This document shows, piece after piece, positions 2,250-50,682 of a stretch of DNA of 50,767 bases. A program made the translations under genes and the position numbers. This stretch comes from Akkermansiaceae bacterium. GTDB lineage: Bacteria; Verrucomicrobiota; Verrucomicrobiia; Verrucomicrobiales; Akkermansiaceae. Position 1 is the stretch's first letter, and the number at the start of each line of letters is the position of its first letter. The stretch spans positions 1-50,767 of the forward strand of contig JALQTQ010000002.1 of the NCBI GenBank assembly GCA_023263995.1. The letters run 5' to 3'. The notes beneath the pieces are model-generated. The model was given only the letters and a program-made list of their open reading frames with translations. It was not told where the DNA came from and made no database searches.

Positions 2250-2265
2250 TCATATCCACTTTTCC

Positions 2266-4241: not shown

Positions 4242-4258
4242 ATCTTCTCAAACAACCA

Positions 4259-35600: not shown

Positions 35601-38600
35601 CGGCCTCACCCGGAAGCGGCGGATCGGTCTCGGGTGGAGGGACCTATCGGGACGGATTTGAAGTGACAGTCAGCGCCACCCCGGACACCTCGGTTTTGCC
35701 CTACCGCTTTGTGAACTGGACCGAGAACGGTGTTTTCGTCAGCGCCAATGCCACCTACACCTTCACCGCCGGGTCCGACCGGAATCTCGTGGCGGTCTTT
35801 GCCCTGCCGCAGTTCCAGGTGGTGTCCTTGGTTTCCCCGCCTGGGTCGGGGAGTGTCTCGGGGGCCGGGACCTATGCCTTGAATGCCACAGCCAGCCTCA
35901 CGGCCAACCCGTCGCCCGGCTACCTCTTCGACCGGTGGGAAGAGGGGGCGACCAATCTGGGTTCGACCAACCCGCTGGCCTTCAATGTCACCGGTGCCCG
36001 CACCGTGACCGCGGTCTTCCGCGAGGCCAATCCGACCCACCTGGTCACGCTGGCGACCGCGCCGCCCGACCTCGTGGTGATACCCGGCGGGGCGACCTAC
36101 GCCAATGGTGAGATTCTCAACGCCACCGCTCCGCTGTCGGTGATCCGAGATGACTCGGAGTTCCTCTTCAAGAGGTGGGTGCTGAATGGGCTGCAGCTCA
36201 ACACCAACCCGGTCCTCAGCAAGACCTTCTCGACGCTCGACCCGCCGGTCATGGCCTACTTGGCCGACTATGAAGAGCGGAGCCTCCTCCCGGTCCTCAC
36301 GTCGGTGACGAGCAACTTCGGGACTCTGGTGCCGCTCTCGGATGCGGTGGTCTTCACCGTCAACTTCGATCGCGACATGAACACCAGCATCCTTCCGGGG
36401 CTGACGCTTTCTTCGGGAACGGCGTCAGTCATCCCGCCGGTGCCGACCGGAGCTTGGGTGAATGCCCGGCAATACCGGAGCGGGCCCACCAGCTTCGGGT
36501 CCGACAGCGCGGGAGCCTTCGCCTTGACGGTCGGGGCGGCCACCGACACCAACGGACGGGTGATGGCGGCGGATTCCTCCTTCGGCTTCACCGTGGACGG
36601 TCTGCCTCCTGAGAATCCGGTGCCGATATTGACCGGAACGACCTCGAGCGCGGCCACCGTGGGATGGGCCGGTTACCCGGCTCCGGCCGATCTGGGGAGC
36701 TTCCGCTATTATCTCGAGACCTCGCCCTTCACCTCGGTTTCGGGACTCTCTCCGGTGAGCGGGGCCGGCAAGACCGCCCGCTCGGCGACCTTCACCGGAC
36801 TTGAACCCGACACGGACTACTACGCTGCCATCATCGCCGTGGACGCCGCCGGTAACATCACCCCCACGGTGACCCCGCTCAGCTTCCGGCTGGCGACCGT
36901 GCTTCCACCTCCGGTCAATCCCACCCTGGCCCGGCCGTCGATCACTTCGGCCCGCCTGGACTGGGCGGCCTACGACCGGACCTTGATCGGGCTGGAGGGC
37001 TTCCGGATCTATCGTTCCACCACCCCGTTCACCACGGTCGATGTTCTCACCCCGGTGGCCGAGGTCGATCGCAATACCACGCAGTATCTCTTCGAGGGAC
37101 TGGACCGCCTCGATGATCATCACTTTGCCGTCGTGGCCTTCAACCGGAATGATGAGCAGGTGGACGAAGTCACGCCCGTGCTCTGGCAGGATCCCCTTCG
37201 TGGAACCCTGGCCGAGTCCTTCACGATCGGAGGCGAGGAGGAGGTGATCCTGATTCACGGGGATCTGGTTTTGTCGGGGGGCGCCACCCTGACCATTCTT
37301 CCGGGAACCACCCTGGCCTTCGCGCCGGGGACAGGTCTTTCGGTGCAGGATGGCATCCTCGTGGCCGACGGTAGTGCGCGCTGGCCGGTCCACTTCACCT
37401 CCGCCGGGGAGTTCTCCGATCCACCGACGGCAGCCCGTGGCGATTGGTCCGGAGTGACGCTGGGCGATCCGACGAAGGTTTCCACCTTGCGTCATCTTTG
37501 GTTGCGGTTCGGTAGTGGCTTGCAGGTGACCGGAGGAGAGCCCGTGCTGTCCAACTACTATGCCGTACAGAATTCCGGAGCGGGCCTCGATGTCAGTGGC
37601 GGAACGGTGAATGGCGTTGATCTGCTACTGACCGTGAACGAAAACGGGGCGCGTGCAACTGGGACGGGATCCTTGACTCTCACCAACAGCATTCTCAAGA
37701 GCAACAGCGTGGCAAACGCGGTCCAGTCCGGAGGCGGGGAGCTTTCCGCCGAAAGATGTTTCTGGGGCACTCCGACGGCTTCCGGTCTCGAGGGAATCGT
37801 CTCGGCCGGTTCGCTGCTGGCCAACGAGCCCGTCCTCGGTGGGGTGCTGGCCGTTCGGAATGGTGAGGACCGGACAGCGACTCGAGACATCGTCCTCTTC
37901 CTAGGGGCGGCCAATGGCGTGAGCTTCCGGTTGTCGGAGGACTCCCTGTTCCCCTCGGTGGCCTTCGATGAGCTTTTTGAAGCGGATGATGATTTCCGCT
38001 TCTCGCCCTACGGATTCGAACTGCCCTTCCGCTTGAGCCAAGGAGGAGGACTGAAAACCGTCTTCGGACAGCTGCGTTCGGAAAGCGACCAGCCCGGAGG
38101 GAATCTCTCAGTCCCCATCACCTTGGTGACCGATGGTCCGGTGGTGGGGTCCTTCAGTCTGACCGAAGGTCAGGTGGTCGATCGTCCGATCACGGTCACC
38201 GGCACGGGAAGTGCGCCGCTGGGAGTGGCGCGAACGCAATTCCTGGTGGACGGCGTGGTTCTGGCTCAAACCACCACCGGGGCCCTGTCCTTCGAGTGGG
38301 ACCCGCGTTCGCTTCCCTCTGGGATCAAGCGGGCCGTTCTAGCGGTCTCGGACAATTACGGGGGAATGGCCACCCGCGAGGTGAATGTCACAGTGGCTCC
38401 CGGCCCGCCGCCGCGCCCGGTTATTGCCTCCCCATCGGACGGGACACTCACCAACAACGCCACCGTCACGGTGCAGGGCTCGGCTGAGCCGGGTGTGACG
38501 GTGCAAGTGACCCGGAACGGCGCCGTGATAGTCTCCGATATCCTGGTGCCTGCAAACGGACAGTTTGTCATTCCGGATGTCCCGCTGGTGGAAGGGGCCA

Positions 38601-41600
38601 ACGTTTTGGTGGTGTCGGCGGCCGACTTTCTGGGCTCGAGTTCCTCGCTTTCGGTTTCTCTGACGTATGATAGCGGCCCGCCTGCCGCTCCGAACCTTTT
38701 GCGGGTGGTCACCAACGACCTTTCGGTTGAGGCTGAGTGGGAATACCAGGGCGATGAAGAGCCGACCCGCTATGGCCTGTATTGGAATCCGACGTCGTTC
38801 GATGATCCGTCGCAGGCTTCCAAAAAAATCGAAAATCTGACGTTAGCCAATGGCAACTTCACCTTCGAGGATGGCAACTGGTTTGTCGGAGTGGTCGCCT
38901 TTGATGCTGCTGGCAATGCCAGCCCGCTTTCAAACCTGCGGCAAATATCGGTCGATTTCAGTCGCCCGGTCATCACTGTCTCTTACGACCAGGCCATGCC
39001 AGTCGGTCCCGGCCTCCTTGGTGTGCAGGTCGAGTCCAATGAAGCGCTCGATTCGGTCCCGTCGATGACCATTCGCTCCGCAGGTTCGAGTAGTCCCATT
39101 GCCATCACTCTGGCTCAGCAGACGTCCACCTTGTTCACCGGGCAGTATCAGGTCAGTGCAGCCAGCAGTCGTTCCGGTAATGCAGCGGTCCGCGTTTCTG
39201 CGCGGGATTTGGCAGGAAATGTCTTCAGCGGAACTCCGCAGGGTGAGAGCCTCAGCTTTGATGTCACCAAGCCCACGGCCATCATCACGCTCGATGAGGC
39301 TGCGCCCATCCAGACCACGTCGCCCCGGACGCTGACGGTCGGGTTGACCTTGTCCGAGAGTCTTGAGGCTGGTACGGAACCAGTCCTTCGATTCGAACCG
39401 CCCGTCGGGGCTATCATTGATCTCCCGCTGACTGGAAGCGGACTGGTCTGGTCGGGGCAACTGCCGGTGAATGCTGCGATGGGAAGCGGGGAGGGCTTCT
39501 TCCGCTTCAACGGCACCGATCCGGCAGGCAACGATGGCACCGTGATCACGGAGAACGAGATCTTGGAGCTCTACAACTCGGCGCTGCCGAACCCACCCGG
39601 ACAGGTGACCCAGGTGCGGGGTGAGATTCTCTCGGGCGGACGCATCCGAATCGATTGGACCCCCGCTGCGCGGGCCGAGTCTTACAAGCTGTTCCGCGAG
39701 CCCGGTAGCGAGGGGGGAGTGCCCACCCTGCTGGTCGAGGGCGGAATCGAGGCCTTGTCCTATGTCGACACCCCGCCTGTTGATGGTCCTTACCGGTACG
39801 CCGTGGTCTCCGAGTTGCGGGGCGCGGAAGGCCCCCCATCCGGCATCCTGGTGGCCGAATCGGACCGGCTGCCTCCGGAAGTGCCCGAGTCCTTCTCGGT
39901 CCAGTTGCTCGCCTCCGGCGTGGAGATCAGTTTTGCGGCACCGGCCTCCGGGCCGATCCCCAGTTCCTACCGGATCTACCGTGGCGCGACCTTGTTGCGC
40001 ACCGTTTCGACTCCGGAGATCATCCGCGACTACCCGGCGCGGGGGGCTCACGATTACCGCGTGGCTTCGGTCGATCAATACGGCAATGAGAATCCCACCG
40101 CCCCCATCACCATCGAGTTGTCGGTGAGTCCGGTGCGCGACCTCCACCTCAATGCCCGTCGGGGGAGTGCTTCCTCGCTGACCTGGCAGAACATCGATAA
40201 CACCGTGGTGGGCTTCAATGTCTATCGGGACGGGGTGAAACAAAACGGAGCGCCCCTGGCGACAGCGGCCTATGTCGATTCGCTGGGTAGCGGCGGTCGC
40301 TCGGTTCTGTATGAAGTGAGCGCTGTGAACGGGGCGGGGGATGAGAGTCTTCGTCGCGAGGTCCGGGTCTTTCCGATCGACCTGCGTGCCCTCCTCAATC
40401 CCGGGCAGGAGGGGAGTGAGGGACGGAGCTTTGCCGGCTACTTTGACCGACTCCGGATTGAAATCGAGAACCGGGCTGCCGGGAACGCGTTGGAGCTGGA
40501 AGCCATCGAGATCAACCGTATGGTGACCGGCGAGGATGATCTCACTCAGACCAATGATTTGAATCTGACGGTGGCCCCCGCGACCACGGAGGCCACCGAG
40601 GTGGTGTTGCCGGCCCCGGTCACGGTGGGAGCGGCCCAGAATTATCAGGTCATCCTGGAAAGCCTTCCCTCGTCGGGGGGCAGCCGGGTGACCTATGAAT
40701 TCAATTTCGAGAAGGATCTTGCGGTCCGGGCCTCGACCCCGGCCAGCCTTCGCACCGCCATGATTCCGGTTGCCGGAGCCAACGCGAATGTTGAGGTCAC
40801 TCTCCGGAATGCTGGGGGGGCTCCGATGGAAGTTATCCTCGGGAGGGAGTCGGGTACCATGCCGGGAGATGTGGCCATCGAGGTCACCACTGCCGAGGGC
40901 GAGGTGGTGAGTCGCACTGAATTCAAGGGACTCGGGGCCACCGGGACCGTTCTCCAAACCGATGGCCGGGTCACGGTGACCATCGCGCCGGGCCAGACCT
41001 TCACCTTCACCGTGCCTGACGTGGTGATTCCGGAATACTTGGGACCGCTCGGGGACGGTGCCTTTCTTTCGCTCAATCTCTCCAACCTCTATTCAGGACT
41101 TGGAACCTCCAACTCGGTCATGCAATCGACAAGGTTGTCCGCCCAGATTTTCACCCGCCTGCTCGAAACACCCTACTACGGCGAGTTGCAAACGGACAAA
41201 GATGCCTATGTCAACGAAGAAACGATCATGATTTCTGGTCGGGCCCTCGCCCGGGAGACCGACCTGCCTGAAGCCAATGTGCCTCTCCGAATCGGTTTCG
41301 AGGTGCAGAGCTACGTCTTTTACGAGGAGGTCACGACGGATGAAAATGGTGACTATACCCTTGAGTTCACTCCGCCCAAGGGGTTCTCAGGCGCATTGAA
41401 CATCTGGGCCGCCCACCCCCTGGTGGTCGATCAACTGAAACAAAAGACCATCCAGTTTCGGCGCTTCTACACGGCCCCGGGAACTGGCCAGATTGTTTTG
41501 TCAAAGAATGACACCCTCGACTTCCAGATCACCCTCGCAAACCCGGGCGACCTCCCTCTTGAGAACATCGCCTTGAACGATCGGGTGTTCATCACGAACG

Positions 41601-43690
41601 AGGGAGTCGAGACCGACATCGACACCATTTCCGCCGAGATCCTGACGCCGGGTCCGCTCAATCTTGAGCCGTATGAGGTTCGCAAGGTGGACCTACGGGT
41701 GACGTCGGCTCTGGATGCCCCAGATGCCGCGGTGGCAGTCCTGAACTTCGTTTCCCAGGGAGGGGCTTCAGCGGAATTCCGGGGCTTCCTGTCCCTCCGC
41801 CCGGCAGTGCCCGTGCTCAGTTTCACCGAGCCCTCGGTGGGATACGTCGACCTGTCGGTCAACCGCGGGGAAATCGCGAGCACCCGGGTCGTTCTCGAGA
41901 ACAAGGGGCTTCGGGCCCTCGAAGGAGTGGAGGTCATTCCACCGTCCACCCTGGGCTGGATGGATGTGACCCTGCCGCGCGATGAGAACGGACGTATCTT
42001 GCTGCCCGACGTTCCGGTCGGCGGGAAGTTGGTCTTCACGGTGGCCTATGCCCCGCCGCAAGGAACGGCGCTGGGGCTTTACGATGATCTCCTCCTCATC
42101 CGGGGCTCGAACCTGCAAAGCGATTTCCAGGTGAACCTGTTTGCCCAGATCACCAGTTCGGAGCGGGGGAGCGTGAAGTTCTTTGTCGACAATATCTTCG
42201 CCGAGCCGGTTCCAAACGCCAAAATCCGTCTGCGCAATCCGAACCTGCGGGCCAACCTGGGACCCTTCTTCACCGATTCCCTCGGTGAAGTGACGATTCC
42301 GGATTTACAGGAGGGAGGATGGTCCTACCAGATCACCGCATCGGGTCACACTACCGCCACCGGAAGCTTCGATGTCCGCGGCGGGCAGACTGCCTTCGCG
42401 ACCCATCGGCTCTCGAAATCGCTGGTGACGGTCGAATTCACGGTGACACCAGTGCCTTTTACCGACCGGTATGAAATCACCATCGAGCAAACCTTCGAAA
42501 CCCGGGTGCCGGTTCCCAATCTTGTGATGGACCCACCAGCAACGCAGTTGTTCGACCTTCCCGATGTGGCCGAGGGAACGATCATGGTCGATGTCAAGAA
42601 CGTGGGTCTGGCCAGTCTCTTCGAGGTGATTATCCGGGGACAGTCCGCGAACTACGGTTCTTTGGTTCCCCTCGTACGCTACCTTCCTGAGTTAAAGGCG
42701 CAGGAGACGGTGACCATTCCCTTCAAGTGGACCTGGGACATCACGGGATTGGTCGATCGCGATGCTCCGGGAGCCGAGCCGAGCAATTTCGATGAACAGG
42801 GAATCGAGAATATTCTAGCCCGCCGGCAGTTGGCTGACCAGATGGCCAATGCTCTGAGCTATCCCGAAACGGGAAATTCGACCTTTGACTTCTGTGCCGG
42901 AAACTTCGGCAGTCCCTTCCCCGATATTCGTGGTCTGGCCGCCCTCACCGAGGGGCTGGCCTGCTGTCCGGATGGCGCACCCCTGGCGGCCGGCGCGGCC
43001 TTCGCCCTGACGGCTTACAGCACCTATTCCTTCATCAGTTCGCCCGCCGTCACCATCGGGACCTTCCTCGGCTGTTTGGCCAGCGGTCTCTTCGACGGGA
43101 TCGGCGGCGGAGGCGGCGGAGGGGGGAGTAGCGGGCCGTCGACATCGCCCGGATTCGGGCCCGGGGGCGGTTGCTTTGTCACCAACACCCTGGTCGAGGT
43201 GCCCAATGCCCCCCCGGTTCCGATCCAGGATCTCAAGACCGGGCAGTTGGTCCGGACCGGCGAGAAGGCGGGGCACTATGCCGCGGTCGAGGAGGTGATC
43301 ACTCGCGAAGCCGACAACCTGCATCGCTTGTCCCTGAAGCCGATGCGGGGGGCGGTTGATGAGAAGCCGATCGTCCTGACCGGTACCGGTGACCATTACG
43401 TCTGGTCCGACTCGTCGGGGTGGACCCGCATTGACCAGCTGAAACCGGGCGATTTCCTGCATCACCATGACGGTCGACTCTTCAAGCTCCTGAAATCGGA
43501 GCTTCTGGAGGGAAGCCACACGGTGCACACCCTGAGCATCAAGGACGATACTGCCTTCTACGCCAACGGCCTGCTGGTGCAGGAACTGTGTGGTGACTTC
43601 GAGCTCCGGGCTGACCCGGAAAAGGAGACTGTGGAGGATGCTTCCTCCGAGCCCCTTGAACCCTTCTCAAACATTCCCGCCATCAAATGA
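29663..43690 (+). CDS. giant (4675-aa) secreted mosaic surface protein ending in a Hint domain
   Basis: A single uninterrupted ORF with signal peptide MKRSYRGAFFLWVQLMILALMPARAVG. Recognisable modules are listed here. LamG_3-like (about 30425-30915, ...ELDEFRVWNVARS). LCCL-like (about 31240-31460, GVYSDDSSPAKAAVHAGIL). FG-GAP/VCBS repeats (about 31960-32950). Several PPC-type (DVDYFRF/DVDYWSF) and CARDB-like domains. Three InlB-B-repeat-like units (about 35590-36030). FN3/Ig-like arrays. A beta-helix-like stretch. CarboxypepD_reg-like. Two hydrophobic segments (about 42977-43095). A Gly8 linker. The Hint domain. Confidence 0.85.
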   Translation: MKRSYRGAFFLWVQLMILALMPARAVGQSFLNMVESPAGAGLFVDRFSGEYLQANLTAGVTRLFNAAAGDRVTVLVETSSLRENANPRVRLTDAGGVLIAEVTGDQQGRVVLENQLIADPGVYTLTIYSTTESAEFTADVMLGRQLELESELNDFPLVADVPKALPVAGGFEVRAAGSLGSTLDWFALGELAVGSAIDLAVVAPANSLLNPEDLSIALFKEGDPVPVTTVSGGALSFTPTEAASYLVRLEVPSLDDKALQFDGTAATVNLGNPVALQISGDQTVEFWVNPARLGKRQNPYEKAYGGEGTMTIEPDGLINYYYGSGGDNNNPYLGVPSVARVRPNEWTHVAMVRDLTSTPKTVTWYFNGQQVAQQEVTIFPAATSVRDFLIGNGYAGYFEGELDEFRVWNVARSAVDIANHYAVTLTGSEGGLVAYYRFNEAGGTDILDGSSNGLNGTITGTFDRSGAGGSVAAFAASQSLGTTYFLSAEVDDLVAPTVVRTGLSPLAPYLFNGTTAAPSNMEGERGNIGSEFFYTVRGTTSGTLKGTGVYSDDSSPAKAAVHAGILRSGEVGTVKVTITGDTRYFQASSNHGVASSFDDFHPGSFTIEPYAPLVAPTLDGLYPGFWVAFSEPVDPSTLDAVTLSWAGPDGVLATADDENFPVSLISVEDHNRAVFGLDGKVLQAGVYRLRVAASLADRAANTLASPYTEDFTIASNSGYVNESGEGDTFATSTLLSLSVDAGTFDGSFVDGGVNQSSSGDSPFDVGHADFDGDGHEDVVVGYQGSGEKVSVFPGNGDGTFGTPVEFPASGDVWDVELIDYNKDGKTDVVASARNIDAVLLLQNTSTPGVLSFVQQANLPVGDDPRVITTGDFNKDTWPDLAVSNYGTNGTTGRSVSLLLNDQSGGFTPSLLEQGTMRAFGLSAADLNGDTNPDLVVGDIDNGQRIGVMLGNGDGTFGAPAFYDYGAGWDPSGIAIADFNQDLAMDLVVMRGNWYARELSIYPGVGDGTFGERINQDLGGGGYYYHFEQGDFTGDGWPDLMLGGYDRLTLLQNTADGSFGFRESSRNPGRAYGVAVADFDEDGTVDLLSSDENNDLLRFYAGQPRAFLLADDSNVATGLLHGYGRGYLSDNNDVDYFRFSAKAGQLVNLAVDTTGQDSANLYYIVEDSEGNDLFAIAGPVTVSGPRTIPRDGTYFVRVSPNAGHYNREYRFRVSLAPAGSGQQESENNDSINNSDGLAFTQSGTQLSARIYGVLMSNDGSGDYYNLGNLAEDTEVRIRLDLPSTSTLDSPALTLFKSDGSAITPDSLSPTELLFQLGEGDASTYFLRVSGGTRSSLAEYFVNVSLTDLVPPSVVADSLPDDSTDGLVTGFSLTFNKDMLPSSINNASNYSLVWAGPDGLPSTPDDVAVTIVSSGYSSGLTASYALAGAPIPAGDYLFRATGLRDIFGNEIPVPYEKAFSVGSQSGAGIETESNNSTATATPLPLDDSIPGYLTANARGLLIDSPDVDYWSFEGESGDLFVFETFLPFVGSTTSLYYRVYRPDGSLLWERRINSSELESAAPVTLPETGTYVIQIDDWNSVRSEYRFRVTLVRAGIDYETEGNGDLGSANPVNYNVVNNINTAVAAGFISGPTQLDFFDLGTIDAGTTVFLSTRAPSGSGLSPIVSLYNSAGQIMNEVSGTPNDSSVEVPISETGVYYGLVRANIGTSGLDGTYVLDIRTLPTAAVDFPNLQVTAVDDVTTPGIRSGDAITFSYTVTNTGSLQTGSSAWVDRVVLSSNDVYGDGDDLQLAVIPHTGALSPSAFYVNNPTVVIPDGLSGDFYLIVRTDSSNAVDEIFKEGDNSRATSTTFPVQLQDYPDLVIEDFGITGPDPSGLYQFDWKLANRGTGDATGNHTTRITILNTTTSQVVLNQDLDVIDAIGSGLFLSQATSLTTTTPGFYLITITADADREVYEYNVSGHGAAEANSLQDNFQIFEFFDIMVSASPGSGGSVSGGGTYRDGFEVTVSATPDTSVLPYRFVNWTENGVFVSANATYTFTAGSDRNLVAVFALPQFQVVSLVSPPGSGSVSGAGTYALNATASLTANPSPGYLFDRWEEGATNLGSTNPLAFNVTGARTVTAVFREANPTHLVTLATAPPDLVVIPGGATYANGEILNATAPLSVIRDDSEFLFKRWVLNGLQLNTNPVLSKTFSTLDPPVMAYLADYEERSLLPVLTSVTSNFGTLVPLSDAVVFTVNFDRDMNTSILPGLTLSSGTASVIPPVPTGAWVNARQYRSGPTSFGSDSAGAFALTVGAATDTNGRVMAADSSFGFTVDGLPPENPVPILTGTTSSAATVGWAGYPAPADLGSFRYYLETSPFTSVSGLSPVSGAGKTARSATFTGLEPDTDYYAAIIAVDAAGNITPTVTPLSFRLATVLPPPVNPTLARPSITSARLDWAAYDRTLIGLEGFRIYRSTTPFTTVDVLTPVAEVDRNTTQYLFEGLDRLDDHHFAVVAFNRNDEQVDEVTPVLWQDPLRGTLAESFTIGGEEEVILIHGDLVLSGGATLTILPGTTLAFAPGTGLSVQDGILVADGSARWPVHFTSAGEFSDPPTAARGDWSGVTLGDPTKVSTLRHLWLRFGSGLQVTGGEPVLSNYYAVQNSGAGLDVSGGTVNGVDLLLTVNENGARATGTGSLTLTNSILKSNSVANAVQSGGGELSAERCFWGTPTASGLEGIVSAGSLLANEPVLGGVLAVRNGEDRTATRDIVLFLGAANGVSFRLSEDSLFPSVAFDELFEADDDFRFSPYGFELPFRLSQGGGLKTVFGQLRSESDQPGGNLSVPITLVTDGPVVGSFSLTEGQVVDRPITVTGTGSAPLGVARTQFLVDGVVLAQTTTGALSFEWDPRSLPSGIKRAVLAVSDNYGGMATREVNVTVAPGPPPRPVIASPSDGTLTNNATVTVQGSAEPGVTVQVTRNGAVIVSDILVPANGQFVIPDVPLVEGANVLVVSAADFLGSSSSLSVSLTYDSGPPAAPNLLRVVTNDLSVEAEWEYQGDEEPTRYGLYWNPTSFDDPSQASKKIENLTLANGNFTFEDGNWFVGVVAFDAAGNASPLSNLRQISVDFSRPVITVSYDQAMPVGPGLLGVQVESNEALDSVPSMTIRSAGSSSPIAITLAQQTSTLFTGQYQVSAASSRSGNAAVRVSARDLAGNVFSGTPQGESLSFDVTKPTAIITLDEAAPIQTTSPRTLTVGLTLSESLEAGTEPVLRFEPPVGAIIDLPLTGSGLVWSGQLPVNAAMGSGEGFFRFNGTDPAGNDGTVITENEILELYNSALPNPPGQVTQVRGEILSGGRIRIDWTPAARAESYKLFREPGSEGGVPTLLVEGGIEALSYVDTPPVDGPYRYAVVSELRGAEGPPSGILVAESDRLPPEVPESFSVQLLASGVEISFAAPASGPIPSSYRIYRGATLLRTVSTPEIIRDYPARGAHDYRVASVDQYGNENPTAPITIELSVSPVRDLHLNARRGSASSLTWQNIDNTVVGFNVYRDGVKQNGAPLATAAYVDSLGSGGRSVLYEVSAVNGAGDESLRREVRVFPIDLRALLNPGQEGSEGRSFAGYFDRLRIEIENRAAGNALELEAIEINRMVTGEDDLTQTNDLNLTVAPATTEATEVVLPAPVTVGAAQNYQVILESLPSSGGSRVTYEFNFEKDLAVRASTPASLRTAMIPVAGANANVEVTLRNAGGAPMEVILGRESGTMPGDVAIEVTTAEGEVVSRTEFKGLGATGTVLQTDGRVTVTIAPGQTFTFTVPDVVIPEYLGPLGDGAFLSLNLSNLYSGLGTSNSVMQSTRLSAQIFTRLLETPYYGELQTDKDAYVNEETIMISGRALARETDLPEANVPLRIGFEVQSYVFYEEVTTDENGDYTLEFTPPKGFSGALNIWAAHPLVVDQLKQKTIQFRRFYTAPGTGQIVLSKNDTLDFQITLANPGDLPLENIALNDRVFITNEGVETDIDTISAEILTPGPLNLEPYEVRKVDLRVTSALDAPDAAVAVLNFVSQGGASAEFRGFLSLRPAVPVLSFTEPSVGYVDLSVNRGEIASTRVVLENKGLRALEGVEVIPPSTLGWMDVTLPRDENGRILLPDVPVGGKLVFTVAYAPPQGTALGLYDDLLLIRGSNLQSDFQVNLFAQITSSERGSVKFFVDNIFAEPVPNAKIRLRNPNLRANLGPFFTDSLGEVTIPDLQEGGWSYQITASGHTTATGSFDVRGGQTAFATHRLSKSLVTVEFTVTPVPFTDRYEITIEQTFETRVPVPNLVMDPPATQLFDLPDVAEGTIMVDVKNVGLASLFEVIIRGQSANYGSLVPLVRYLPELKAQETVTIPFKWTWDITGLVDRDAPGAEPSNFDEQGIENILARRQLADQMANALSYPETGNSTFDFCAGNFGSPFPDIRGLAALTEGLACCPDGAPLAAGAAFALTAYSTYSFISSPAVTIGTFLGCLASGLFDGIGGGGGGGGSSGPSTSPGFGPGGGCFVTNTLVEVPNAPPVPIQDLKTGQLVRTGEKAGHYAAVEEVITREADNLHRLSLKPMRGAVDEKPIVLTGTGDHYVWSDSSGWTRIDQLKPGDFLHHHDGRLFKLLKSELLEGSHTVHTLSIKDDTAFYANGLLVQELCGDFELRADPEKETVEDASSEPLEPFSNIPAIK
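43172..43585 (+). other. Hint (Hedgehog/intein-like, bacterial intein-like) autoprocessing domain at residues about 4504-4641 of the giant protein
   Basis: It starts with Cys directly after GGGGGGGGSSGPSTSPGFGPGGG (CFVTNTLVEV...IQDLKTGQLVRT). The block B motif TGDH (TxxH) is present. The C-terminal block is HTVHTLSIKDDTAFYANGLLVQE, with QE in place of the intein HN. Only 34 residues follow it. Confidence 0.7.
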
Positions 43691-46600
43691 AAACCGCATG
43701 CCATTCCAACTCCCGGCCGGGCCGTTTTTGGGTAGCTGTCCTGTTCCTTTCCGGGCTCGTTCCCGCGCTCTTTGCCCAGCAGCAGTTCCAGGGGCTCTGC
43801 AACCGGGTGAAGATCGAAATCGCGCAGGAGCTGACCACCGAACGGATCGGATTCGAGGCCGTGCTCAAGGTGACCAATAACGACGGGGAGGATCCCATCA
43901 CCAACTTCTCGGCTGCTCTCACCTTCACTGACAAGGAAACGGGGGAGGATGCCGCCGACCGGTTCTTCGTGCAGCCTCCCGAGTTGTCCTCGATCAACCG
44001 CATCGACGGAACGGGCAACATCTCGCCGACCCAGACGGCTGTCATGACCTGGTTCATCATTCCCAAGACCGGGGAAAACGCGCCGGGTGGTGAGGACCCC
44101 CGCGGGAAGCTCTACGACATCGGATGCAATCTCGCCGGCTCGATCCGTGGGGAGCCCATTCCCGGTGATGTCCTTTTCGCGGTCAGTGACACCATCACGG
44201 TTCGGCCGGAGCCTCAGTTGGCTATCACTTACTTCCAGCCTCGCGATGTGCAGGGTGACGATCCGTTCACGCCGGAGGTGGAAAGCCCCATTCCCTTCAC
44301 CCTCGGGGTGTTGGTCAAGAATGACGGCTTTGGAATCGCCAAGAAGGTCAAGATCGATTCCCAGCAACCCAAGATCCAGGAGAATCGCAACGGTCTCTTG
44401 TTAATTGCGCGCTTGCTCGGAGCGCGGGTGCAGGACTCGCAACTCGATGAGACCAGCCTTGTGGTCAATCTCGGCGACATCGAGCCGGCCAAAGTGAAGA
44501 AAGGGGCGTGGGACATGATCACCTCGCTGAGCGGCGAGTTCGTCGAGTTTCAGGCCCGCTACACCCACGCCGATGATCTCGGAGGTGAGGCCACCTCCCT
44601 GATCAAGAGTCTCGATGCCCACTTCATCGCCCGCGAGGTCCTCAATGACGAACCCGGGCGGGACTCTATCATGGATTTCCTCGCCGATACTGATCGGGAT
44701 TCCAACCGTATCCCCGACACCCTCTACGAAACGGATGGCGCCATCCTGCCGGTCAACTACCAGCCGCAGGCAACCGTTGATGGCCTGAGTGGAGGCAAGA
44801 CCACCGTGACCCTCAATGCCGACCGCGAGGGGTGGGTCTACCTTCGTCTCGACGATCCCGCCCAGTTTCGCTTCCCGATTGCCAGTGTGGTGCGCAACGA
44901 CGGCAAAGTCCTCAATCCCCGGAACTACTGGACCAACGTCCGTTACCGACCATCCGACAACTTCCGCCTGACTTACCTCAATCTCTTCGATCGCGTGGAA
45001 AACGGAGCCTCCCATACCTATGAGGTGACCTATGACACGGTCAGCGACGACGTCACTTCTCCGGAGACCCGCATTCGCTTTTCAGGCGAGGTGAGCGGAG
45101 ATGGGCCGTATTACATCACGCCTGAAACGCAGATCTACTTCACGAGCGAGGACGATAGCCCGGTCTCGATTGAATACCAGCTTGACGGCGGCGGCTTCCG
45201 GCCGGCCCTTCCCTTTGATCTCGATCTTCCCGGCACCTATGTCGTGGAGTTCTTTGCGACCGATGTCCCCGGCAATGTCGAAGTCACCAAGACCGCGACC
45301 CTGATCATTCCGGAACCGGGAGCACCGGTGGCCTTGAGTGCCGATGAAAACCGGATCTTCCCGTCGGATCTTCTCTCTATCCGGCCAAACCAGACCCCCA
45401 TCCGTGCCACCGTGCCACCAAGCTCAGTCGAGGTGAACGGGCAACTCCGGCTCTACCGTGGGGTGGTGGCCTTTCCTCAACTCGCCGGGATCCCGATGGA
45501 CCCGACTCCCCGGAGTGGGGCCACCATTGAAGTGAGCGGGCAATTCGCGGAGTATTACCAATATCGGATCAATGGCGGTGCCTGGACTGCCGAACGTCCG
45601 GTTGATCAGCTCATCGAACTGACCGACCTCAGCGGATCGATCACTCTTGAGGTGCGGGCGCGCCATGGCCTCGGAGATTACCTTGACGACGCCCAAGCGC
45701 TCACGGTGACCTGGACGGTCGATCCCGCCGCCGAGGATCTGATGATCACCGGGCTGCCTCCCACACCCACCCGCGAAGGCAGTACTATTACCGCCGACGT
45801 GACCACTAACGGTTCCTCGACGCAATACCGATGGTCTCCGGGTGGGCTCGGCTTTTATCGCCCGGCTGAACCCTACACCACTCCGATCACGCGCGAGCGT
45901 CTGCTGGAGGGAGATTATCAACTCAACATCATCACCAATGCCGGTGGGACTTTTCCCGATGAGGCCGCCCCCGACTCGGTCAGCGTGGCCCGGTGGACTT
46001 TTGACCGGAGCTGGGGATTTGATTTCTCAAGCCTGACCGAGATCCGGAGCGAGGAACTGGACAATGTCGCGGGGACCGGGATTTCCTTTGTCTGGGATGG
46101 TCGTGATTCCGATGGCGTGGAGCAGATTCCCGGAGCCTACACCGTTTCCCTGGAGCTCACCGATGCCCTCGGCAACATCACCCGGGCCGCCAGCCTGGTC
46201 GAGATCGAGGGGCTGTCGTCGAGTCGGCAGATCCTGGCCGCCGCCTCGAGCTCTCCCGGCAACCTCCGGGCGCAAGGCGACTGGGCGGTTTGGCAGCAGC
46301 GGGTGGGAACCACCTTGAACATCTTCGCCGACAATCTCAGCGACAGTGAACCGCCGGTGGCCATCACCAACTCGGTGGAGATGGACCAGGAAGATCCAGC
46401 GACCGATGGGGCCTATGTCGTTTGGCAGACCCGTTTGCCCAACGGCTCCACCGATCTTCTTTACTCCCCCCTGGGTGCCCCGACTCCGGCCATCGTGACT
46501 GACACGCCGGGCCGGGTGGAGGCCAATCCGGTCATCGAGTGGCCCTGGGTGGTCTACCAGGTCAAGGATGCTGACAGCCCGTCGGCTCCGTGGCAGGTCG

Positions 46601-47667
46601 AGGCTTGGAACGCCCAGAGCAATGAACGATTCCTGGTGTCCCCTGGTGTCGGGGACCAGTTCCGTCCCCAGATTCATGGCGGACGAATGGTCTGGGAAGA
46701 TCATCGCGATGTCGGTCCAGGCGAGGTTTACTTTGCTGATCTCGAGACCCGAGAGGTCCTGCGCATCACCAACAATACTTTCGGGCAGAACAACCCCACC
46801 ATCCACGGTGACCTGATCGCCTGGCAGGACAATCGCAGTGGCCAGGTCGACATCTACCTGCGCGATCTGCGTCGCCCGGTGGAAGAACAGATCACCTCGA
46901 CCAACTACAACGAGGCCAACCCGCTCCTGAGTGGGACCTGGCTTTTGTTCACCGAAGATTCACTGGGGCCCCAGCTCGACAACCTGGTGATTTACGACCT
47001 TCAGGCCGGCAGCCAGCTCTCGCTCACACGCGCCACCCGACGCCACACCTTGGGTGGGCTTGGAAACGGGTTTGGAGTCTGGATCGAAACGGTCAACGGA
47101 TCCCGTACCGTGGTGGCCAGCCGCCTGCCGGGATTGCAGGCCGTGATGACCAGCACCAACGCCCTCGCGGTGAGCCCCGGTTTGGTCAGCCGCTTCGACT
47201 CCGCTTTCGATCTCCTCAAGAGTTGGGGCGGCGGCAACGGGGTGACTTCGGTGAGCCTCTATCAGAGCCTCGATCCCGTTTCGGTGGTGACCGCCGAATA
47301 CAATGGCGGATCGCCAACCGGCGACGATTTTGCCCTCGTGCCCGGGAGTTTTCTCTGGGTGCAATTCGAAGCCGCCAACTTGGTTGACCTCGGCAGTGGG
47401 GGCTTCGGCGAAGTCACGGTCGAGAGCGGCGTCAATGTCCTTAGCTATACCGGCTTTCCGGTGGGTTTCACTTCTTACGACCTGGTGGGCTCGATCGGAG
47501 CGACCAAGGTGCGCGGGATCCGGCTCTACGATGCCTTTGCGGGCGTCTGGCGATCCTTGGAGATCGATGAAACCGGTCTCCCCACCGGGCCGAACTTCAC
47601 CATCCCGCGGGTAGCTACTCTCATCATGGACTTGCGGGAAGCTTCCACCTTTACCCCGAAATTCTAA
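43687..47667 (+). CDS. 1326-aa secreted multidomain protein with a C-terminal beta-propeller-like repeat region
   Basis: The ATG overlaps the giant gene stop (ATGA 43687-43690). The signal peptide is ...FWVAVLFLSGLVPALFAQQ. It has Ig-like modules, including a FlgD-Ig-like GISFVWDGRDSDGVEQIPGAYTV. About seven ~45-aa repeats G(D/A)x(V/I)(V/A)WQ...(D/E)(I/L)Y..(D/P)L span about 46270-47130. Confidence 0.8.
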   Translation: MKTACHSNSRPGRFWVAVLFLSGLVPALFAQQQFQGLCNRVKIEIAQELTTERIGFEAVLKVTNNDGEDPITNFSAALTFTDKETGEDAADRFFVQPPELSSINRIDGTGNISPTQTAVMTWFIIPKTGENAPGGEDPRGKLYDIGCNLAGSIRGEPIPGDVLFAVSDTITVRPEPQLAITYFQPRDVQGDDPFTPEVESPIPFTLGVLVKNDGFGIAKKVKIDSQQPKIQENRNGLLLIARLLGARVQDSQLDETSLVVNLGDIEPAKVKKGAWDMITSLSGEFVEFQARYTHADDLGGEATSLIKSLDAHFIAREVLNDEPGRDSIMDFLADTDRDSNRIPDTLYETDGAILPVNYQPQATVDGLSGGKTTVTLNADREGWVYLRLDDPAQFRFPIASVVRNDGKVLNPRNYWTNVRYRPSDNFRLTYLNLFDRVENGASHTYEVTYDTVSDDVTSPETRIRFSGEVSGDGPYYITPETQIYFTSEDDSPVSIEYQLDGGGFRPALPFDLDLPGTYVVEFFATDVPGNVEVTKTATLIIPEPGAPVALSADENRIFPSDLLSIRPNQTPIRATVPPSSVEVNGQLRLYRGVVAFPQLAGIPMDPTPRSGATIEVSGQFAEYYQYRINGGAWTAERPVDQLIELTDLSGSITLEVRARHGLGDYLDDAQALTVTWTVDPAAEDLMITGLPPTPTREGSTITADVTTNGSSTQYRWSPGGLGFYRPAEPYTTPITRERLLEGDYQLNIITNAGGTFPDEAAPDSVSVARWTFDRSWGFDFSSLTEIRSEELDNVAGTGISFVWDGRDSDGVEQIPGAYTVSLELTDALGNITRAASLVEIEGLSSSRQILAAASSSPGNLRAQGDWAVWQQRVGTTLNIFADNLSDSEPPVAITNSVEMDQEDPATDGAYVVWQTRLPNGSTDLLYSPLGAPTPAIVTDTPGRVEANPVIEWPWVVYQVKDADSPSAPWQVEAWNAQSNERFLVSPGVGDQFRPQIHGGRMVWEDHRDVGPGEVYFADLETREVLRITNNTFGQNNPTIHGDLIAWQDNRSGQVDIYLRDLRRPVEEQITSTNYNEANPLLSGTWLLFTEDSLGPQLDNLVIYDLQAGSQLSLTRATRRHTLGGLGNGFGVWIETVNGSRTVVASRLPGLQAVMTSTNALAVSPGLVSRFDSAFDLLKSWGGGNGVTSVSLYQSLDPVSVVTAEYNGGSPTGDDFALVPGSFLWVQFEAANLVDLGSGGFGEVTVESGVNVLSYTGFPVGFTSYDLVGSIGATKVRGIRLYDAFAGVWRSLEIDETGLPTGPNFTIPRVATLIMDLREASTFTPKF

Positions 47668-47679
47668 CCGTTGATCATC

Positions 47680-48528
47680 ATGAAACGATTCCGAGCCACC
47701 TTCCTGATTTCCTTGGCCTGCCTGCAAGGGGTTCCCGGAGCCGAGATTTCGGCCAAGCAGTTGCGTGCCCTTCTCGCCAAGCCCGGACACCATCCGGTCC
47801 TGATCGACATTCGGCCCACCGCTTCATTCCAGAAGGGCTCCTTGCCCGGAGCCATCAACATTCCGGGGCAGGTCCTGCTGGAGAAAAAGATGAGTTTTTC
47901 GCGGGGATGCATCCTCATTTCCGACGGCATCGCAGACAAGGTGGATCCGGTTCAACTGGCCGAAAAGTTGCGGGCCCAAGGGGTTTCTTCAGTGGACTAT
48001 CTCAAAGGAGGGGTGGCGGCGTGGTCTGAGCTCAAGGACGCCCCCACCACCACTGGCAAGGGGTCGTCCATTGGGCGAACCACCCGGACGGTGACGTATC
48101 AGGACTTGGTCCGTAAAAACGGCGATGTCTGTGTGATTGATCTGCGGACTGCCCAGGAACGCGAGGTCTCCGAGGGGCACCAGTGTCCAGTGGCAGGGTT
48201 TTGCGGATTGCGCAAGTTCGCCTACTGCGCCAATCTCAAGGAGTTTCATCACCGCAACCGCCGGTTTTCCCGTGAGGACCGAGCCGGGGATATGCCCTTG
48301 ATCATTCTCATTCCCAGCGCCACCAACGACGCGGAGCCGGTGCTGAATTCCCTCCTGCTGGAAGGCTACCGTCGCTCGGCCATCCTGATCGGGGGAGCCG
48401 AGGTGATCGAAACCGAGGGGCGACGCGGGCTCAAGCGAAGTGGGGCCAGCACCGTGCGTTATCGCGATAAGCCCGGCGACGAGTCCGGGCGATCGATCAA
48501 AGAGGCTCAATCCACCCCCAACCGATAG
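47680..48528 (+). CDS. secreted tandem rhodanese-like domain protein lacking an obvious catalytic Cys loop
   Basis: MKRFRATFLISLACLQGVPGAEI is a signal peptide. Two rhodanese-like units are present (VLIDIRPTASFQKGSLPGAINIP...YLKGGVAAW and VCVIDLRTAQE...ILIGGAEV). I could not find a C-x5-R active-site loop. The ORF could also start at TTG 47671. Confidence 0.6.
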   Translation: MKRFRATFLISLACLQGVPGAEISAKQLRALLAKPGHHPVLIDIRPTASFQKGSLPGAINIPGQVLLEKKMSFSRGCILISDGIADKVDPVQLAEKLRAQGVSSVDYLKGGVAAWSELKDAPTTTGKGSSIGRTTRTVTYQDLVRKNGDVCVIDLRTAQEREVSEGHQCPVAGFCGLRKFAYCANLKEFHHRNRRFSREDRAGDMPLIILIPSATNDAEPVLNSLLLEGYRRSAILIGGAEVIETEGRRGLKRSGASTVRYRDKPGDESGRSIKEAQSTPNR

Positions 48529-48537
48529 TCAACCGCC

Positions 48538-50055
48538 ATGAATCGATTCCCATTCCTCTTCCCCATCATCGCCGCGTGCGGATTCATCCTTGGTTCGTGG
48601 GCTGCGGCGAATCCGACGGTGGAGAGCGCAGAGGTGGGCAATGTCACCACCACCGGTTTTTCGCTTTGTTGGGAAAGCAGCGAGGCGGCCTTGCCTCGCC
48701 TCCGGGTTTTCCGCGATGCGGCCGGAACCCAGGAAGTCACTGACGACGTCTCTATTGCCTATCAAGCCCTTGCCGCCGATCGTCGTGAGGTCTCCAGCAC
48801 GCCCGCAACCCGGGCTCGGAACCGGCAGGTCCGACAAGCGATGACCGACCGCCTGGTCTTTCTGGCCCGGGTTTCGGGACTGCAACCGGGGCGTGATTAC
48901 TGGGTGGAGGCGGCGGTTCTCGACCCGGTCGATGAAACCCCTGATGCCAGCGCCCTGCTGCCGGTCACCACGGCGTCGCGCGCGACTTTCCTCTTGGAGT
49001 CCCGTCAACTGGTGGTCGATCTTGGCGGGGCGGGCGACCTGACCGGTTGTGTGGTCGGGCTTTCCCATGCGACCTCTCCCTATCCCTTGTTTGCGGTGGT
49101 GGGCGATGGCCTCGCCGGGAGCCGGGCTTACCTTGATCTCACCCATTTTCTCGATGCCACCGGCGAGACCCAACTCAATCCCGCTTCCGGGTCCACTCTG
49201 GAACTGGTGGTGGAACTCAAGGGGAGCGACCTCAAAGAGGGGGATTTCGATGGGACTGATGTTGCCTTTGACGGAAGCCTTACGGCTGCCTTGTCCTCCA
49301 CTGCCACCTACAGTTCCGGGGAGGTGATTCTGGTGGCCACCCCGGACCGGGCGACGGCCCTGGTGGGGCAGCCCCTCCTGGTGGATTTCCGGGTCGAGAC
49401 CACGGGCGGCGAGGTGGTCACTGGTTTCAATGGTCCGCTCACCTTGACCTCGGCCGCGATCGTGGGAGGGAGCCTGATCACCGACCCGCTGGTCGACGGA
49501 GACCTGACGGGACAGCCCGTGACCTTTGGGACTGCCGGGGTGCAGACGGTGTCGGTCCTTGATGTGACGAGCGGTGCTGGAACGTCCTTCGAAATCAACG
49601 TGCTGGACTACACCTACGAGAACTTTCGGACCCACTATTTTGGCGATCCGGCCGATCCTGCGGGTGGGTTTTCCGTCAATGGCGATCATGATCCTTACAG
49701 TAATCTTGAGGAGTTTGCTTACGGTCTCAATCCCCTGATCCTCGATCGTCCGCTGGTAATTGGCGGTGATGGGGCATCCTTGTTCCGGGAGGGTGGTCCG
49801 GTGATCACCCTGCGGATTGATGGTGGCGGTGTGGATTTCAGGGTCACCTTTTTGCGTCCCCGGAACCACGAAAGCCTCGGTTTAAGCTATGTTCCACGCT
49901 TCAGTGCCGACCTTGAAAATTGGTTCGATGCTCCTGGAGATCCCATCGTCTTGGCCACCGAAGGTGAACTCGAACTCGTCACGGTTCAGTTTCCCTTACT
50001 CACTCCGGAAATTCGCAAGGCTCGCTTTTTCAGCCTCGCGGTCAAAATTCAATAG
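48538..50055 (+). CDS. 505-aa secreted protein (FN3-like N-domain, Ig-like middle, PVC-type C-terminal module)
   Basis: The signal peptide is MNRFPFLFPIIAACGFILGSWAAA. An FN3-like VGNVTTTGFSLCWES...YWVEAAV is present. The C-terminal motif is DHDPYSNLEEFAYGLNPL...YVPRFSADLENW. Confidence 0.6.
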   Translation: MNRFPFLFPIIAACGFILGSWAAANPTVESAEVGNVTTTGFSLCWESSEAALPRLRVFRDAAGTQEVTDDVSIAYQALAADRREVSSTPATRARNRQVRQAMTDRLVFLARVSGLQPGRDYWVEAAVLDPVDETPDASALLPVTTASRATFLLESRQLVVDLGGAGDLTGCVVGLSHATSPYPLFAVVGDGLAGSRAYLDLTHFLDATGETQLNPASGSTLELVVELKGSDLKEGDFDGTDVAFDGSLTAALSSTATYSSGEVILVATPDRATALVGQPLLVDFRVETTGGEVVTGFNGPLTLTSAAIVGGSLITDPLVDGDLTGQPVTFGTAGVQTVSVLDVTSGAGTSFEINVLDYTYENFRTHYFGDPADPAGGFSVNGDHDPYSNLEEFAYGLNPLILDRPLVIGGDGASLFREGGPVITLRIDGGGVDFRVTFLRPRNHESLGLSYVPRFSADLENWFDAPGDPIVLATEGELELVTVQFPLLTPEIRKARFFSLAVKIQ

Positions 50056-50064
50056 ATCCCCTTT

Positions 50065-50682
50065 ATGAAAGAACTGATCATTTTGTCATTTTTCATCACC
50101 GCCTCGCTTGGTCGAGCGGCGATCATCCTCTGGGCGAACCAGGAAATTGCCATCCCGAATAGTTCGGTTGGGGTTTATCTCAACCCGGCGACAGGGGAAA
50201 CCCATACTTCTGAGTCCGTCGGTTTCTCGAACACCGCGGTGAATTTCTTCTTCCGCGGACAGGGAATTCTATCGACGGAAGATTTTATGCCAGCGAGGTT
50301 GGGAACAGGTCGTCTTGATCCGATTCGACGCCTTTATCCCGGTGATCTGGTCAATGGCACCCTGACCTTTGGTCCGCAGGGTAATGGTGGTTCGAGCGGA
50401 CATGTCAGCACCGTGCCTGCACCCGATCAATTTGAGTCAGGGGTTCCGGGATACCTCGGGTTTCAGCTCGATCTCAATGAGGATGGACAATATGTCTTTG
50501 GTTGGATGCGGGTGACGTTTTCAAGTGGGGCAGAGGAGGCGGCCATTCACGAGTGGGCCTACCGCACTGCCCCTGGTCAGGAAATCATCGTGGGAGTTGT
50601 TCCGGAGCCTTCGACCTGGGTTGGGGGATTTCTTGGAGCCTGCCTGGTGATGGCCTTCCAACGGAAAAGGAAAGGGGGATGA
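50065..50682 (+). CDS. PEP-CTERM sorting-signal protein
   Basis: The N-terminal signal peptide is MKELIILSFFITASLGRAA. The C-terminus is VPEPSTWVGGFLGACLVMAFQRKRKGG: a PEP motif, a TM helix and a basic tail. Confidence 0.85.
   Translation: MKELIILSFFITASLGRAAIILWANQEIAIPNSSVGVYLNPATGETHTSESVGFSNTAVNFFFRGQGILSTEDFMPARLGTGRLDPIRRLYPGDLVNGTLTFGPQGNGGSSGHVSTVPAPDQFESGVPGYLGFQLDLNEDGQYVFGWMRVTFSSGAEEAAIHEWAYRTAPGQEIIVGVVPEPSTWVGGFLGACLVMAFQRKRKGG

Follow-up and report, generated by a model that had tools for sequence, protein, structure and literature searches.

A family of giant Verrucomicrobial proteins that end in a Hint domain of the pretoxin and intein-like clade

A giant exported protein with a Hint domain at its C-terminus

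We analyzed a 50,767-nucleotide stretch of DNA from an Akkermansiaceae bacterium of the Verrucomicrobiota (GCA_023263995.1, contig JALQTQ010000002.1, positions 1 to 50,767; hereafter the window), focusing on the C-terminal end of a giant protein encoded on its forward strand. This end is a Hint domain, a fold known in bacteria from inteins, bacterial intein-like (BIL) domains, and pre-toxin releasers (PT-HINT), and the features of the giant open reading frame (ORF) are as follows.

29663 to 43690, + strand: giant ORF of 4675 aa (14,028 nt), from the ORF list and its translation
29663 to 29737, + strand: probable Sec signal peptide MKRSYRGAFFLWVQLMILALMPARA, with VGQ following, inferred by eye from the sequence
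36260 to 42712, + strand: core kept across the family, aa ~2200 to 4350, from the collinearity of members
42893 to 43099, + strand: Cys-framed helical region with C4411, C4435, C4471, and three predicted helices
43100 to 43171, + strand: Gly/Ser/Pro-rich linker IGGGGGGGGSSGPSTSPGFGPGGG, aa 4480 to 4503, the last of which, Gly4503, is the predicted scissile residue
43172 to 43585, + strand: Hint domain of the PT-HINT/BIL clade, C4504 to E4641, 138 aa
43172 to 43174, + strand: codon of the Cys1 nucleophile, C4504, at a Gly-Cys-Phe junction (G4503-C4504-F4505)
43385 to 43396, + strand: block B motif TGDH, T4575 to H4578
43580 to 43594, + strand: end of the Hint with its flank: Q4640-E4641 where His-Asn would stand, followed by L4642 at +1 (no nucleophile) and by C4643-G4644
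43595 to 43687, + strand: acidic terminal tail DFELRADPEKETVEDASSEPLEPFSNIPAIK, 31 aa past Cys-Gly

A domain scan of the protein body finds Laminin_G_3, LCCL, six FG-GAP repeats, PPC, CARDB, Flg_new_2, fn3, several Big_x domains, and CarboxypepD_reg. Past the Hint end there are 34 residues (L4642 to K4675), followed by the stop codon at 43688 to 43690, and the Gly/Ser/Pro linker includes a run of eight glycines (G4481 to G4488). The closest relative of the giant protein is a metagenomic fragment (P0001) that is 89% identical to it. A sequence-only reading of the window had proposed a Hint domain here, and its coordinates are exact: base 43172 is the first of Cys4504 (in CFVTNT), and the TGDH motif, the AFYANGLLVQE end, the length of 138 aa, the 34-aa tail, and the Gly8 run are all as it described them.

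The giant protein truly ends in a Hint domain. The fold is confirmed because family-profile matches in the PDB, Pfam matches, a hidden Markov model (HMM) built without the window copy, AlphaFold2 (AF2) modeling, and Foldseek agree. Scanned alone against Pfam, the window C-terminus stays below all gathering thresholds, with Hint_2 at 18.0 bits (E = 0.0038), Vint at E = 0.02, PF07591 (PT-HINT) at 13.1 bits (E = 0.11; gathering threshold, 27.7 bits), and a match to Hint PF01079 that covers only positions 10 to 48 of the 213 in that profile, so that a naive test of this one sequence would have seemed negative. An NCBIfam scan of the C-terminal 296 aa gives no match either. An exhaustive HMMER search with aa 4380 to 4675 against 1.84 billion cluster representatives, on the other hand, recovers 465 relatives at E < 1e-3, 104 of them at E < 1e-10; a search with an alignment of the Hint domain only recovers just 12 proteins. 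PF07591 (Pretoxin HINT) matches 33 of 46 family members at E <= 1e-3 (best, 1.2e-28), and an HMM from 45 members, with the window excluded, matches the window C-terminus with 244 bits (E = 1.5e-70 at Z = 1e6). The comparison with Pfam that the sequence-only reading had suggested is therefore negative for the window copy alone and positive for its family.

The structure prediction that it had likewise suggested supports the placement of a Hint fold at the extreme C-terminus of a giant multidomain protein with a Sec signal. Given the family alignment, AF2 models aa 4502 to 4644 with a predicted local distance difference test (pLDDT) score of 96 to 98 (from the single sequence the score is 36, which is uninformative), and the model superposes on BIL and mini-intein structures. 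Foldseek against the PDB returns 64 matches at E <= 1e-3, with E values down to 1e-10, and the best of these are all BIL, intein, or Hedgehog chains; target-normalized TM scores are 0.71 to 0.89 to the Tetrahymena BIL2, the Clostridium thermocellum BIL (2LWY), and the gp41-1 intein. BIL2 is both the best single-sequence PDB match and the best Foldseek match of the window Hint.

With respect to clade, the domain is a bacterial PT-HINT/BIL Hint, not a Hedgehog Hint. A profile of 46 relatives searched against the PDB gives 8W20 as the best match (2.7e-21; deposited as "intein C-terminal splicing domain-containing protein"), followed by 2LWY (1.4e-20) and BIL2 (6TMM; 1.3e-18), with weaker matches to mini-inteins (~1e-7) and to Hedgehog (1AT0; 3.9e-5, with a Foldseek E value of 1.2e-6 for the Hedgehog chain). 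The earlier label of "Hedgehog-like" thus holds for the architecture, a terminal Hint behind a Gly-Cys-Phe junction, and does not hold for sequence and structure, which are nearest to PT-HINT and BIL domains (E of 1e-18 to 1e-21 versus 3.9e-5); the phylum and the cargo differ as well. PT-HINT domains (PF07591; CdiA, Rhs, MafB, and Streptomyces UmbC, 8W20) fall in the same sequence clade as the window family, and both have Cys1 and TxxH. The window Hint also resembles the A-type BIL 2LWY (TM score of 0.83), including the absence of a +1 nucleophile (Leu4642 in the window). A-type BILs, which are defined by a C-terminal His-Asn and found in secreted or variable bacterial proteins (PMC4031507), are internal, however, whereas the window Hint is terminal and ends in Gln-Glu. 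B-type BILs are described as having no similarity to intein block G (PMC4031507), and in this respect the window Hint differs from them, with AFYANGLLVQE aligning with block G of BILs and inteins (...vLVHN) in profile alignments.

Upstream of the Hint domain, the element conserved in the family is a Cys-framed helical hairpin followed by a Gly/Ser/Pro linker of ~33 aa. The framing cysteines, which the sequence-only reading had missed, are C4411 (63/64), C4435 (54/71, otherwise Ser or Thr), and C4471 (67/70), and the spacing from Cys4471 to Cys1 has a family median of 33 aa. That reading had pointed instead to two hydrophobic segments. The hydrophobic stretch is present at 42977 to 43095 (aa ~4439 to 4478), where the two segments match the second and third of three consecutive helices (AF2 pLDDT of only 57 to 67). 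Its mean Kyte-Doolittle hydropathy over 19 residues (KD19) peaks at 1.53, which is not above several internal beta-rich regions of the same protein. A conserved transmembrane hairpin at this position is unsupported: in the 76 members compared, the number of charged residues in the Cys-to-Cys hairpin (median length, ~41 aa) ranges from 0 to 22, the hairpin is polar in many of them, and only 31 reach a KD19 of 1.6. The more hydrophobic members, that of the window included, may have a membrane-interacting role.

Conserved residues and the chemistry they point to

For the residue census, the query was shortened before the end motif, so that this motif could not bias the selection of members, and the best 150 representatives were taken, of which 118 domains reach the start of the Hint and 148 reach its end. 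Most relatives lie at the extreme C-terminus of proteins of 3,000 to 7,220 aa or are short pieces of such ends on contig fragments. We observe a terminal-type ending in 120 of the 148 end-reaching domains, with the shared form A-F-Y-A-N/G-G-v-L-V-[H 66, Q 20, R 17, E 11]-[D 84, Q 16, E 12, H 8]-x-Cys-Gly, in which the final Hint residue is thus Asp, Gln, Glu, or His and is Asn in none. The remaining 27 domains are canonical ...VHN Hints followed by 80 to 1440 more residues, or tandem copies.

Conservation is uneven along the domain. At the N-terminal side, Cys1 is kept in 118/118 domains, the block-B His in 120/120, and the block-B Thr in 115/120 (Ser in 4); at -1 there is Gly in 66/118 and Gly or Ala in 85/118, and Phe directly follows Cys1 in 64 of the 71 members of a 71-member alignment. 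At the C-terminal side, the block-G His is retained in 66/120 terminal-type domains, and the block-F His, which aids Asn cyclization, in only 19/120 versus 16/27 of the canonical HN relatives; the +1 residue of the terminal type is mostly Leu (49 of 120; Q 16, R 12, S 11). What is invariant in the terminal type is the Cys-Gly at +2/+3 (Cys4643-Gly4644 in the window), another feature absent from the sequence-only reading. The tail past Cys-Gly has a median length of 17 aa (mode, 15) and often finishes in E-V-x-K/R (E at -4 in 58/122, V at -3 in 54/122, K/R last in 69/122). Pfam and NCBIfam scans of the C-terminal 296 aa, tail included, find no toxin or other domain past the Hint. The conserved cysteines of the family are thus five in number (4411, 4435, 4471, 4504, and 4643).

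By these patterns, the residues maintained by selection are those for the attack of Cys1 on the preceding, mostly Gly, carbonyl, and those for Asn cyclization and trans-esterification have been relaxed. Judged by family conservation, a canonical intein is excluded, because the Asn, the block-F and block-G His, and the +1 nucleophile are not maintained. Canonical class 1 inteins carry (His)-Asn, with either Cys, Ser, or Thr at +1, in contrast to Gln4640-Glu4641 and Leu4642, and they restore their host protein by splicing, whereas the window Hint is terminal and its "C-extein" would be a short variable tail. The sequence-only reading had already called a true intein unlikely and had named N-terminal thioester chemistry as the remaining route, and both judgments agree with the absence of Asn, the usual Leu at +1, and the strict conservation of Cys1 and the block-B Thr and His. 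The Gln-Glu end to which it pointed is not in itself enough to exclude C-terminal cleavage, since Asp, Gln, and Glu termini cyclize in some inteins (PMC4031507).

We consider it moderately probable that the last 172 residues form a catalytically competent Hint that self-cleaves the giant protein, having lost both a toxin cargo and the C-terminal cleavage chemistry. Fold, clade, family, operon, and pattern of conservation are results of the analysis; the acyl shift, the cleavage, and its site, as well as the agent resolving the thioester, are inferred. The giant protein would first be exported by Sec and fold. Cys4504, helped by Thr4575 and His4578, would then attack the carbonyl of Gly4503 in an N-S acyl shift, so that a thioester replaces the peptide bond with which the Gly-rich linker ends. 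This thioester would be resolved, by default by hydrolysis, and a mature protein of ~4500 residues would part from the 172-aa Hint and tail. The latter would be a throwaway C-terminal handle that removes itself, probably serving export or assembly with the co-conserved partner proteins described below. There is a functional analogy to autotransporter passenger release and to the C-terminal domain (CTD) of the type IX secretion system (T9SS) with PorU, in which a C-terminal export module is later removed and, for the T9SS, the new C-terminus is covalently attached; the analogy is one of function only, the folds and the chemistry being unrelated.

Several observations weigh against this proposal. 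The window copy is divergent, with N4515, A4516, and Q4528 in place of the consensus D, G, and D, and is sub-threshold in Pfam on its own. The giant protein is exported to an oxidizing compartment and has the five conserved Cys, so that a disulfide could lock Cys1, perhaps to the invariant Cys4643, which the model leaves unexplained. The cyclization of Asp, Gln, and Glu in some inteins keeps C-terminal cleavage possible. Finally, if the thioester is simply hydrolyzed, it is not obvious why the Cys-Gly is invariant, the E-V-x-K/R end semi-conserved, and the set of partners tightly conserved.

Two other readings draw on the same residues. In one, which we regard as improbable, the Hint would be noncatalytic or redox latched, serving the partner machinery as a docking or plug module, with Cys1 held in a disulfide (e.g., with Cys4643) outside the cell or in the oxidizing periplasm and cleavage occurring never or upon reduction. 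Export of the protein, the five conserved Cys with one at +2 adjoining the active site, and the semi-conserved extreme C-terminal motif, suggestive of a recognition element, would fit such a latch; the block-B Thr and His (120/120 for His) conserved alongside Cys1 are nevertheless hard to square with a purely structural role, and the odd number of conserved Cys leaves one of them free. The other, quite improbable reading is an excision like that of A-type BILs, in which the terminal Glu (Asp or Gln in relatives) cyclizes and cuts the bond between Hint and tail, after which the alpha-amine of Leu4642 attacks the thioester; as an outcome, just as doubtful, the short tail would be spliced onto the giant protein and the Hint discarded. 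It would be in line with the A-type 2LWY being the nearest solved relative, with the splicing of A-type BILs without a +1 nucleophile and the cyclization of non-Asn termini (PMC4031507), and with a tail whose semi-conserved terminus might be a functional product. Against it stand the relaxation of the cyclization-assisting His residues of blocks F and G (19/120 and 66/120), a terminal residue that varies between D, Q, E, and H while the HN relatives keep both His, and tails that are short and variable in sequence. Self-cleavage by N-terminal chemistry remains the reading that we favor.

Conserved core, operon, and toxin relatives

All 35 members longer than 3000 aa (35/35) are collinear with the window protein over residues ~2200 to 4350 and again over the Hint, with the first ~2200 residues being variable. 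The Hint is the end of a conserved C-terminal core of ~2450 aa rather than as a mobile appendage. The seven named members all belong to Verrucomicrobiota (Luteolibacter yonseiensis, Pedosphaera parvula Ellin514, Opitutales, Puniceicoccaceae, and several metagenome-assembled genomes), and their database names never mention a Hint. The giant gene is followed in the window by these genes.

43687 to 47667, + strand: exported partner protein, 1326 aa, whose ATG overlaps the giant stop codon (ATGA)
47680 to 48528, + strand: exported tandem rhodanese-like protein, 282 aa, Cys-less at both active-site loops
48538 to 50055, + strand: exported 505-aa protein, function unassigned
50065 to 50682: PEP-CTERM protein, 205 aa (VPEPST, hydrophobic helix, RKRKGG)

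The order of giant, ~1320- to 1345-aa partner, rhodanese-like, and 495- to 690-aa genes is kept in 8/9 loci (L001 to L005, L010, and L011 among them), the exception being L009, a member of a divergent VHERCG subclade without a partner nearby. The sequence-only reading had treated the domain as an unusual feature of one adhesin; instead, a whole protein family ends in it, and both this ending and the operon are conserved. Across the loci with this operon, the Hint module is ~32 to 47% identical, and the partner is much better conserved (44 to 69% identity to its orthologues), with long stretches that do not vary within its first ~440 aa. This N-terminal domain (aa 30 to 470, window positions 43774 to 45096), with conserved motifs such as YFQPRDVQGDDPFTPEVESPIPF, has no Pfam, NCBIfam, or PDB sequence match, recurs at 35 to 41% identity in 620- to 760-aa proteins of other phyla, and looks like an undescribed domain family. 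The rest of the partner consists of Ig-like pieces (FlgD-like Ig and OmpL47 type) and a TolB-type beta-propeller. We also considered the partner as a known enzyme and rejected this, its N-terminal 440 aa being without a match and the remainder being Ig-like and propeller pieces only.

The rhodanese-like protein lacks Cys at both active-site loops in 6/6 orthologues; the loops read VVVY[ADG][DE]G and LIVL[IV][DP], and a C-terminal GR.G..R motif is conserved (window and L001 to L005). Sulfur or thiocarboxylate chemistry on the Gly thioester by way of this gene was rejected for that reason. The PEP-CTERM signal of the 205-aa protein suggests that the source organism probably has an exosortase system. 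In L002, L004, and L010 (3/9 loci), the gene directly upstream of the giant one encodes a Peptidase_S8 (subtilisin), in L010 also with a P_proprotein domain; it is absent from the window.

Within the clade, several of the HN-type relatives (P0142, P0147, P0129, and P0093) recognizably belong to polymorphic toxins. In these, either the end of an RHS-type core or a set of strongly hydrophobic helices comes first, then a Gly linker, then a Hint with the ending HN[SA]C, and last a domain of toxin size; the HINT follows a Gly-rich linker and a hydrophobic or helical stretch, as it does in the window protein. In P0142, P0147, and P0093 the helices before the HN-type PT-HINT and toxin domain are hydrophobic and rich in Gly and Ala. 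Because some HN-type toxins carry a Cys at +2 (HN[SA]C), this Cys may be older than the toxin-less family. In PT-HINT toxins, however, the HINT is internal, before the toxin, and ends in His-Asn, whereas the window Hint is terminal, without a toxin or an adjacent immunity gene, and its family ends in [HQRE][DEQH]-x-Cys-Gly. Pro-toxin HINT domains, noted in combination with two transmembrane segments and proposed as autoproteolytic releasers, were described as one that "always occurs sandwiched" between pre-toxin and toxin domains (PMC3113570), and the window family breaks this rule. An arrangement of toxin and immunity gene is not found, the next downstream gene being the exported partner (1326 aa in the window) in 8/9 loci.

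A link to toxin biology is seen in Orbus sturtevantii (locus L006, CP133960.1, 10001 to 21679), in which a homologue of the partner N-terminal domain is followed by four genes, for a 287-aa weakly rhodanese-like protein, a 1258-aa protein, an RHS/TEN_YD-shell/Ntox33 toxin, and a DUF4279 protein, the last of which occupies the position expected for an immunity gene. The 1258-aa protein is homologous to residues ~3852 to 4357 of the giant protein (E = 2e-17) and is Hint-less, with a Cys/Gly-rich tail. This locus may be an uncharacterized toxin-delivery gene set, and it links the history of the whole gene set to polymorphic-toxin biology. Colicin and microcin-family genes and a holin gene lie directly upstream of the Orbus set.

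Taken by themselves, the composite module of hydrophobic helices, Gly linker, and Hint in true toxins (P0142, P0147, P0129, and P0093) and the Hint-less core homologue next to an RHS toxin in Orbus could suggest that the window Hint is merely carried along as what is left of a polymorphic toxin after the loss of its toxin domain. We hold this to be very improbable, because a neutral remnant would decay, whereas catalytic residues are invariant over 120 diverged representatives and the tail length, the Cys-Gly motif, and the operon are all conserved. With 465 representatives, and 120 of the best 150 being of the terminal type, the terminal Hint does not look like a decayed remnant, and the module of the window protein is rather a toxin-less, Asn-less derivative of a composite module already present in toxins.

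A more substantial alternative to hydrolytic self-cleavage is that the Hint works as a built-in ligase or sortase, in which a specific nucleophile resolves the Gly4503 thioester and thereby covalently anchors or cross-links the giant protein. We consider this possible on grounds of analogy, although rather unlikely. Candidate acceptors are envelope lipids or glycans (through an amine or hydroxyl), peptidoglycan, and the co-translated 1326-aa partner (through a Lys), with Cys4643 as a possible relay thiol. Such a transfer would resemble that of Hedgehog to cholesterol. The Hedgehog processing junction is GCF, and the window protein shares with Hedgehog (1AT0) a C-terminal Hint on an N-terminal secreted cargo, a Gly-Cys-Phe junction, and the absence of a C-terminal splicing step. 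The Tetrahymena BIL2 (6TMM/6Y75), among the closest relatives by both structure and sequence, is a precedent for ligation over hydrolysis of a Hint thioester, since in BUBL proteins it transfers its N-terminal, ubiquitin-like domain to Lys (PMC8616854); unlike the window Hint, it is eukaryotic and cytoplasmic, with ubiquitin-like flanks and an Asn end. A flexible Gly-rich C-terminus such as that left by the linker resembles the handles of ubiquitin- or sortase-type ligation. The invariant Cys-Gly at +2/+3, a partner gene that overlaps the giant stop codon and exceeds the Hint module in conservation, and the retention of the operon in 8/9 loci would likewise fit. On the other side, the acceptors are candidates only and everything beyond thioester formation is analogy. 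The sterol-recognition region that follows the Hedgehog Hint has no counterpart in the window protein, which has a 34-aa acidic tail instead; the rhodanese-like protein has no catalytic Cys and hence no sulfur chemistry to offer; and the L009 family member is without a partner nearby. In its fullest form, also rather unlikely, a single-turnover "sortase" would couple the giant protein to an envelope component or to the 1326-aa partner, and the N-terminal domain of the partner, the Cys-less tandem rhodanese, and the core would jointly represent an undescribed export or assembly apparatus that in Gammaproteobacteria (Orbus) is RHS-linked instead.

Parts of this picture are already known, including PT-HINT and BIL domains, and Pfam matches many members of the family. 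C-terminal Hint-like domains of secreted bacterial proteins were reportedly noted by Dassa and Pietrokovski. Terminal Hint-like domains with two conserved upstream Cys were described in secreted proteobacterial and myxobacterial signal-peptide proteins (Burglin 2008, PMC2362128); these are a precedent, whereas the window family is near BIL and PT-HINT domains and sits on giant Verrucomicrobial proteins. In the searchable literature we found no description of the toxin-less terminal subfamily, its Cys-Gly ending, the giant core, or the operon. Every toxin case described so far has the Hint before a released cargo, and the window family, on proteins of 3,000 to 7,200 residues with a dedicated operon, would be a prokaryotic counterpart of the Hedgehog arrangement. 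The family arose within the PT-HINT/BIL clade, from which eukaryotic Hedgehog Hints have been proposed to derive (PMC3417536). It gives a model, open to testing, of the way in which Hint chemistry limited to the N-terminal reaction evolves out of splicing or toxin release. Very little is known of how the largest proteins of Verrucomicrobiota are secreted and attached to the surface, and the family also provides a candidate step of maturation or anchoring for them. If a specific acceptor exists, this would be a new natural protein-ligation chemistry of biotechnological interest, and if the sortase reading is true, giant surface fibers in Verrucomicrobiota would be anchored covalently in a manner similar to Hedgehog and ubiquitin. 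If there is hydrolytic self-cleavage only, the family would be a modest addition to the catalogue of autoprocessing domains.

Other genes in the window

Elsewhere in the window, we observe a defense island at 1266 to 4241, with an IetA-like AAA ATPase (1266 to 2249; PADLOC, E = 1.8e-74) followed by a Septu pair, PtuA (2266 to 3612, E = 8e-130) and PtuB (3609 to 4241, E = 4e-20). The island is adjoined by a large serine recombinase gene (5685 to 7757; Resolvase/Recombinase/Zn_ribbon_recom) and an IS66-family transposase gene (7972 to 9594), and near 10 kb the GC skew switches sign. The window also encodes, at 9793 to 13458, a second large FG-GAP/VCBS protein, of 1221 aa with ASPIC/UnbV domains and no Hint end. 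At 18730 to 20954, a gene with Schlafen AlbA_2 and HATPase_c_4 domains overlaps a ParA-like AAA_31 ATPase gene, and the Schlafen AlbA_2 protein shows weak similarity in PADLOC to Argonaute-associated PNTD proteins.

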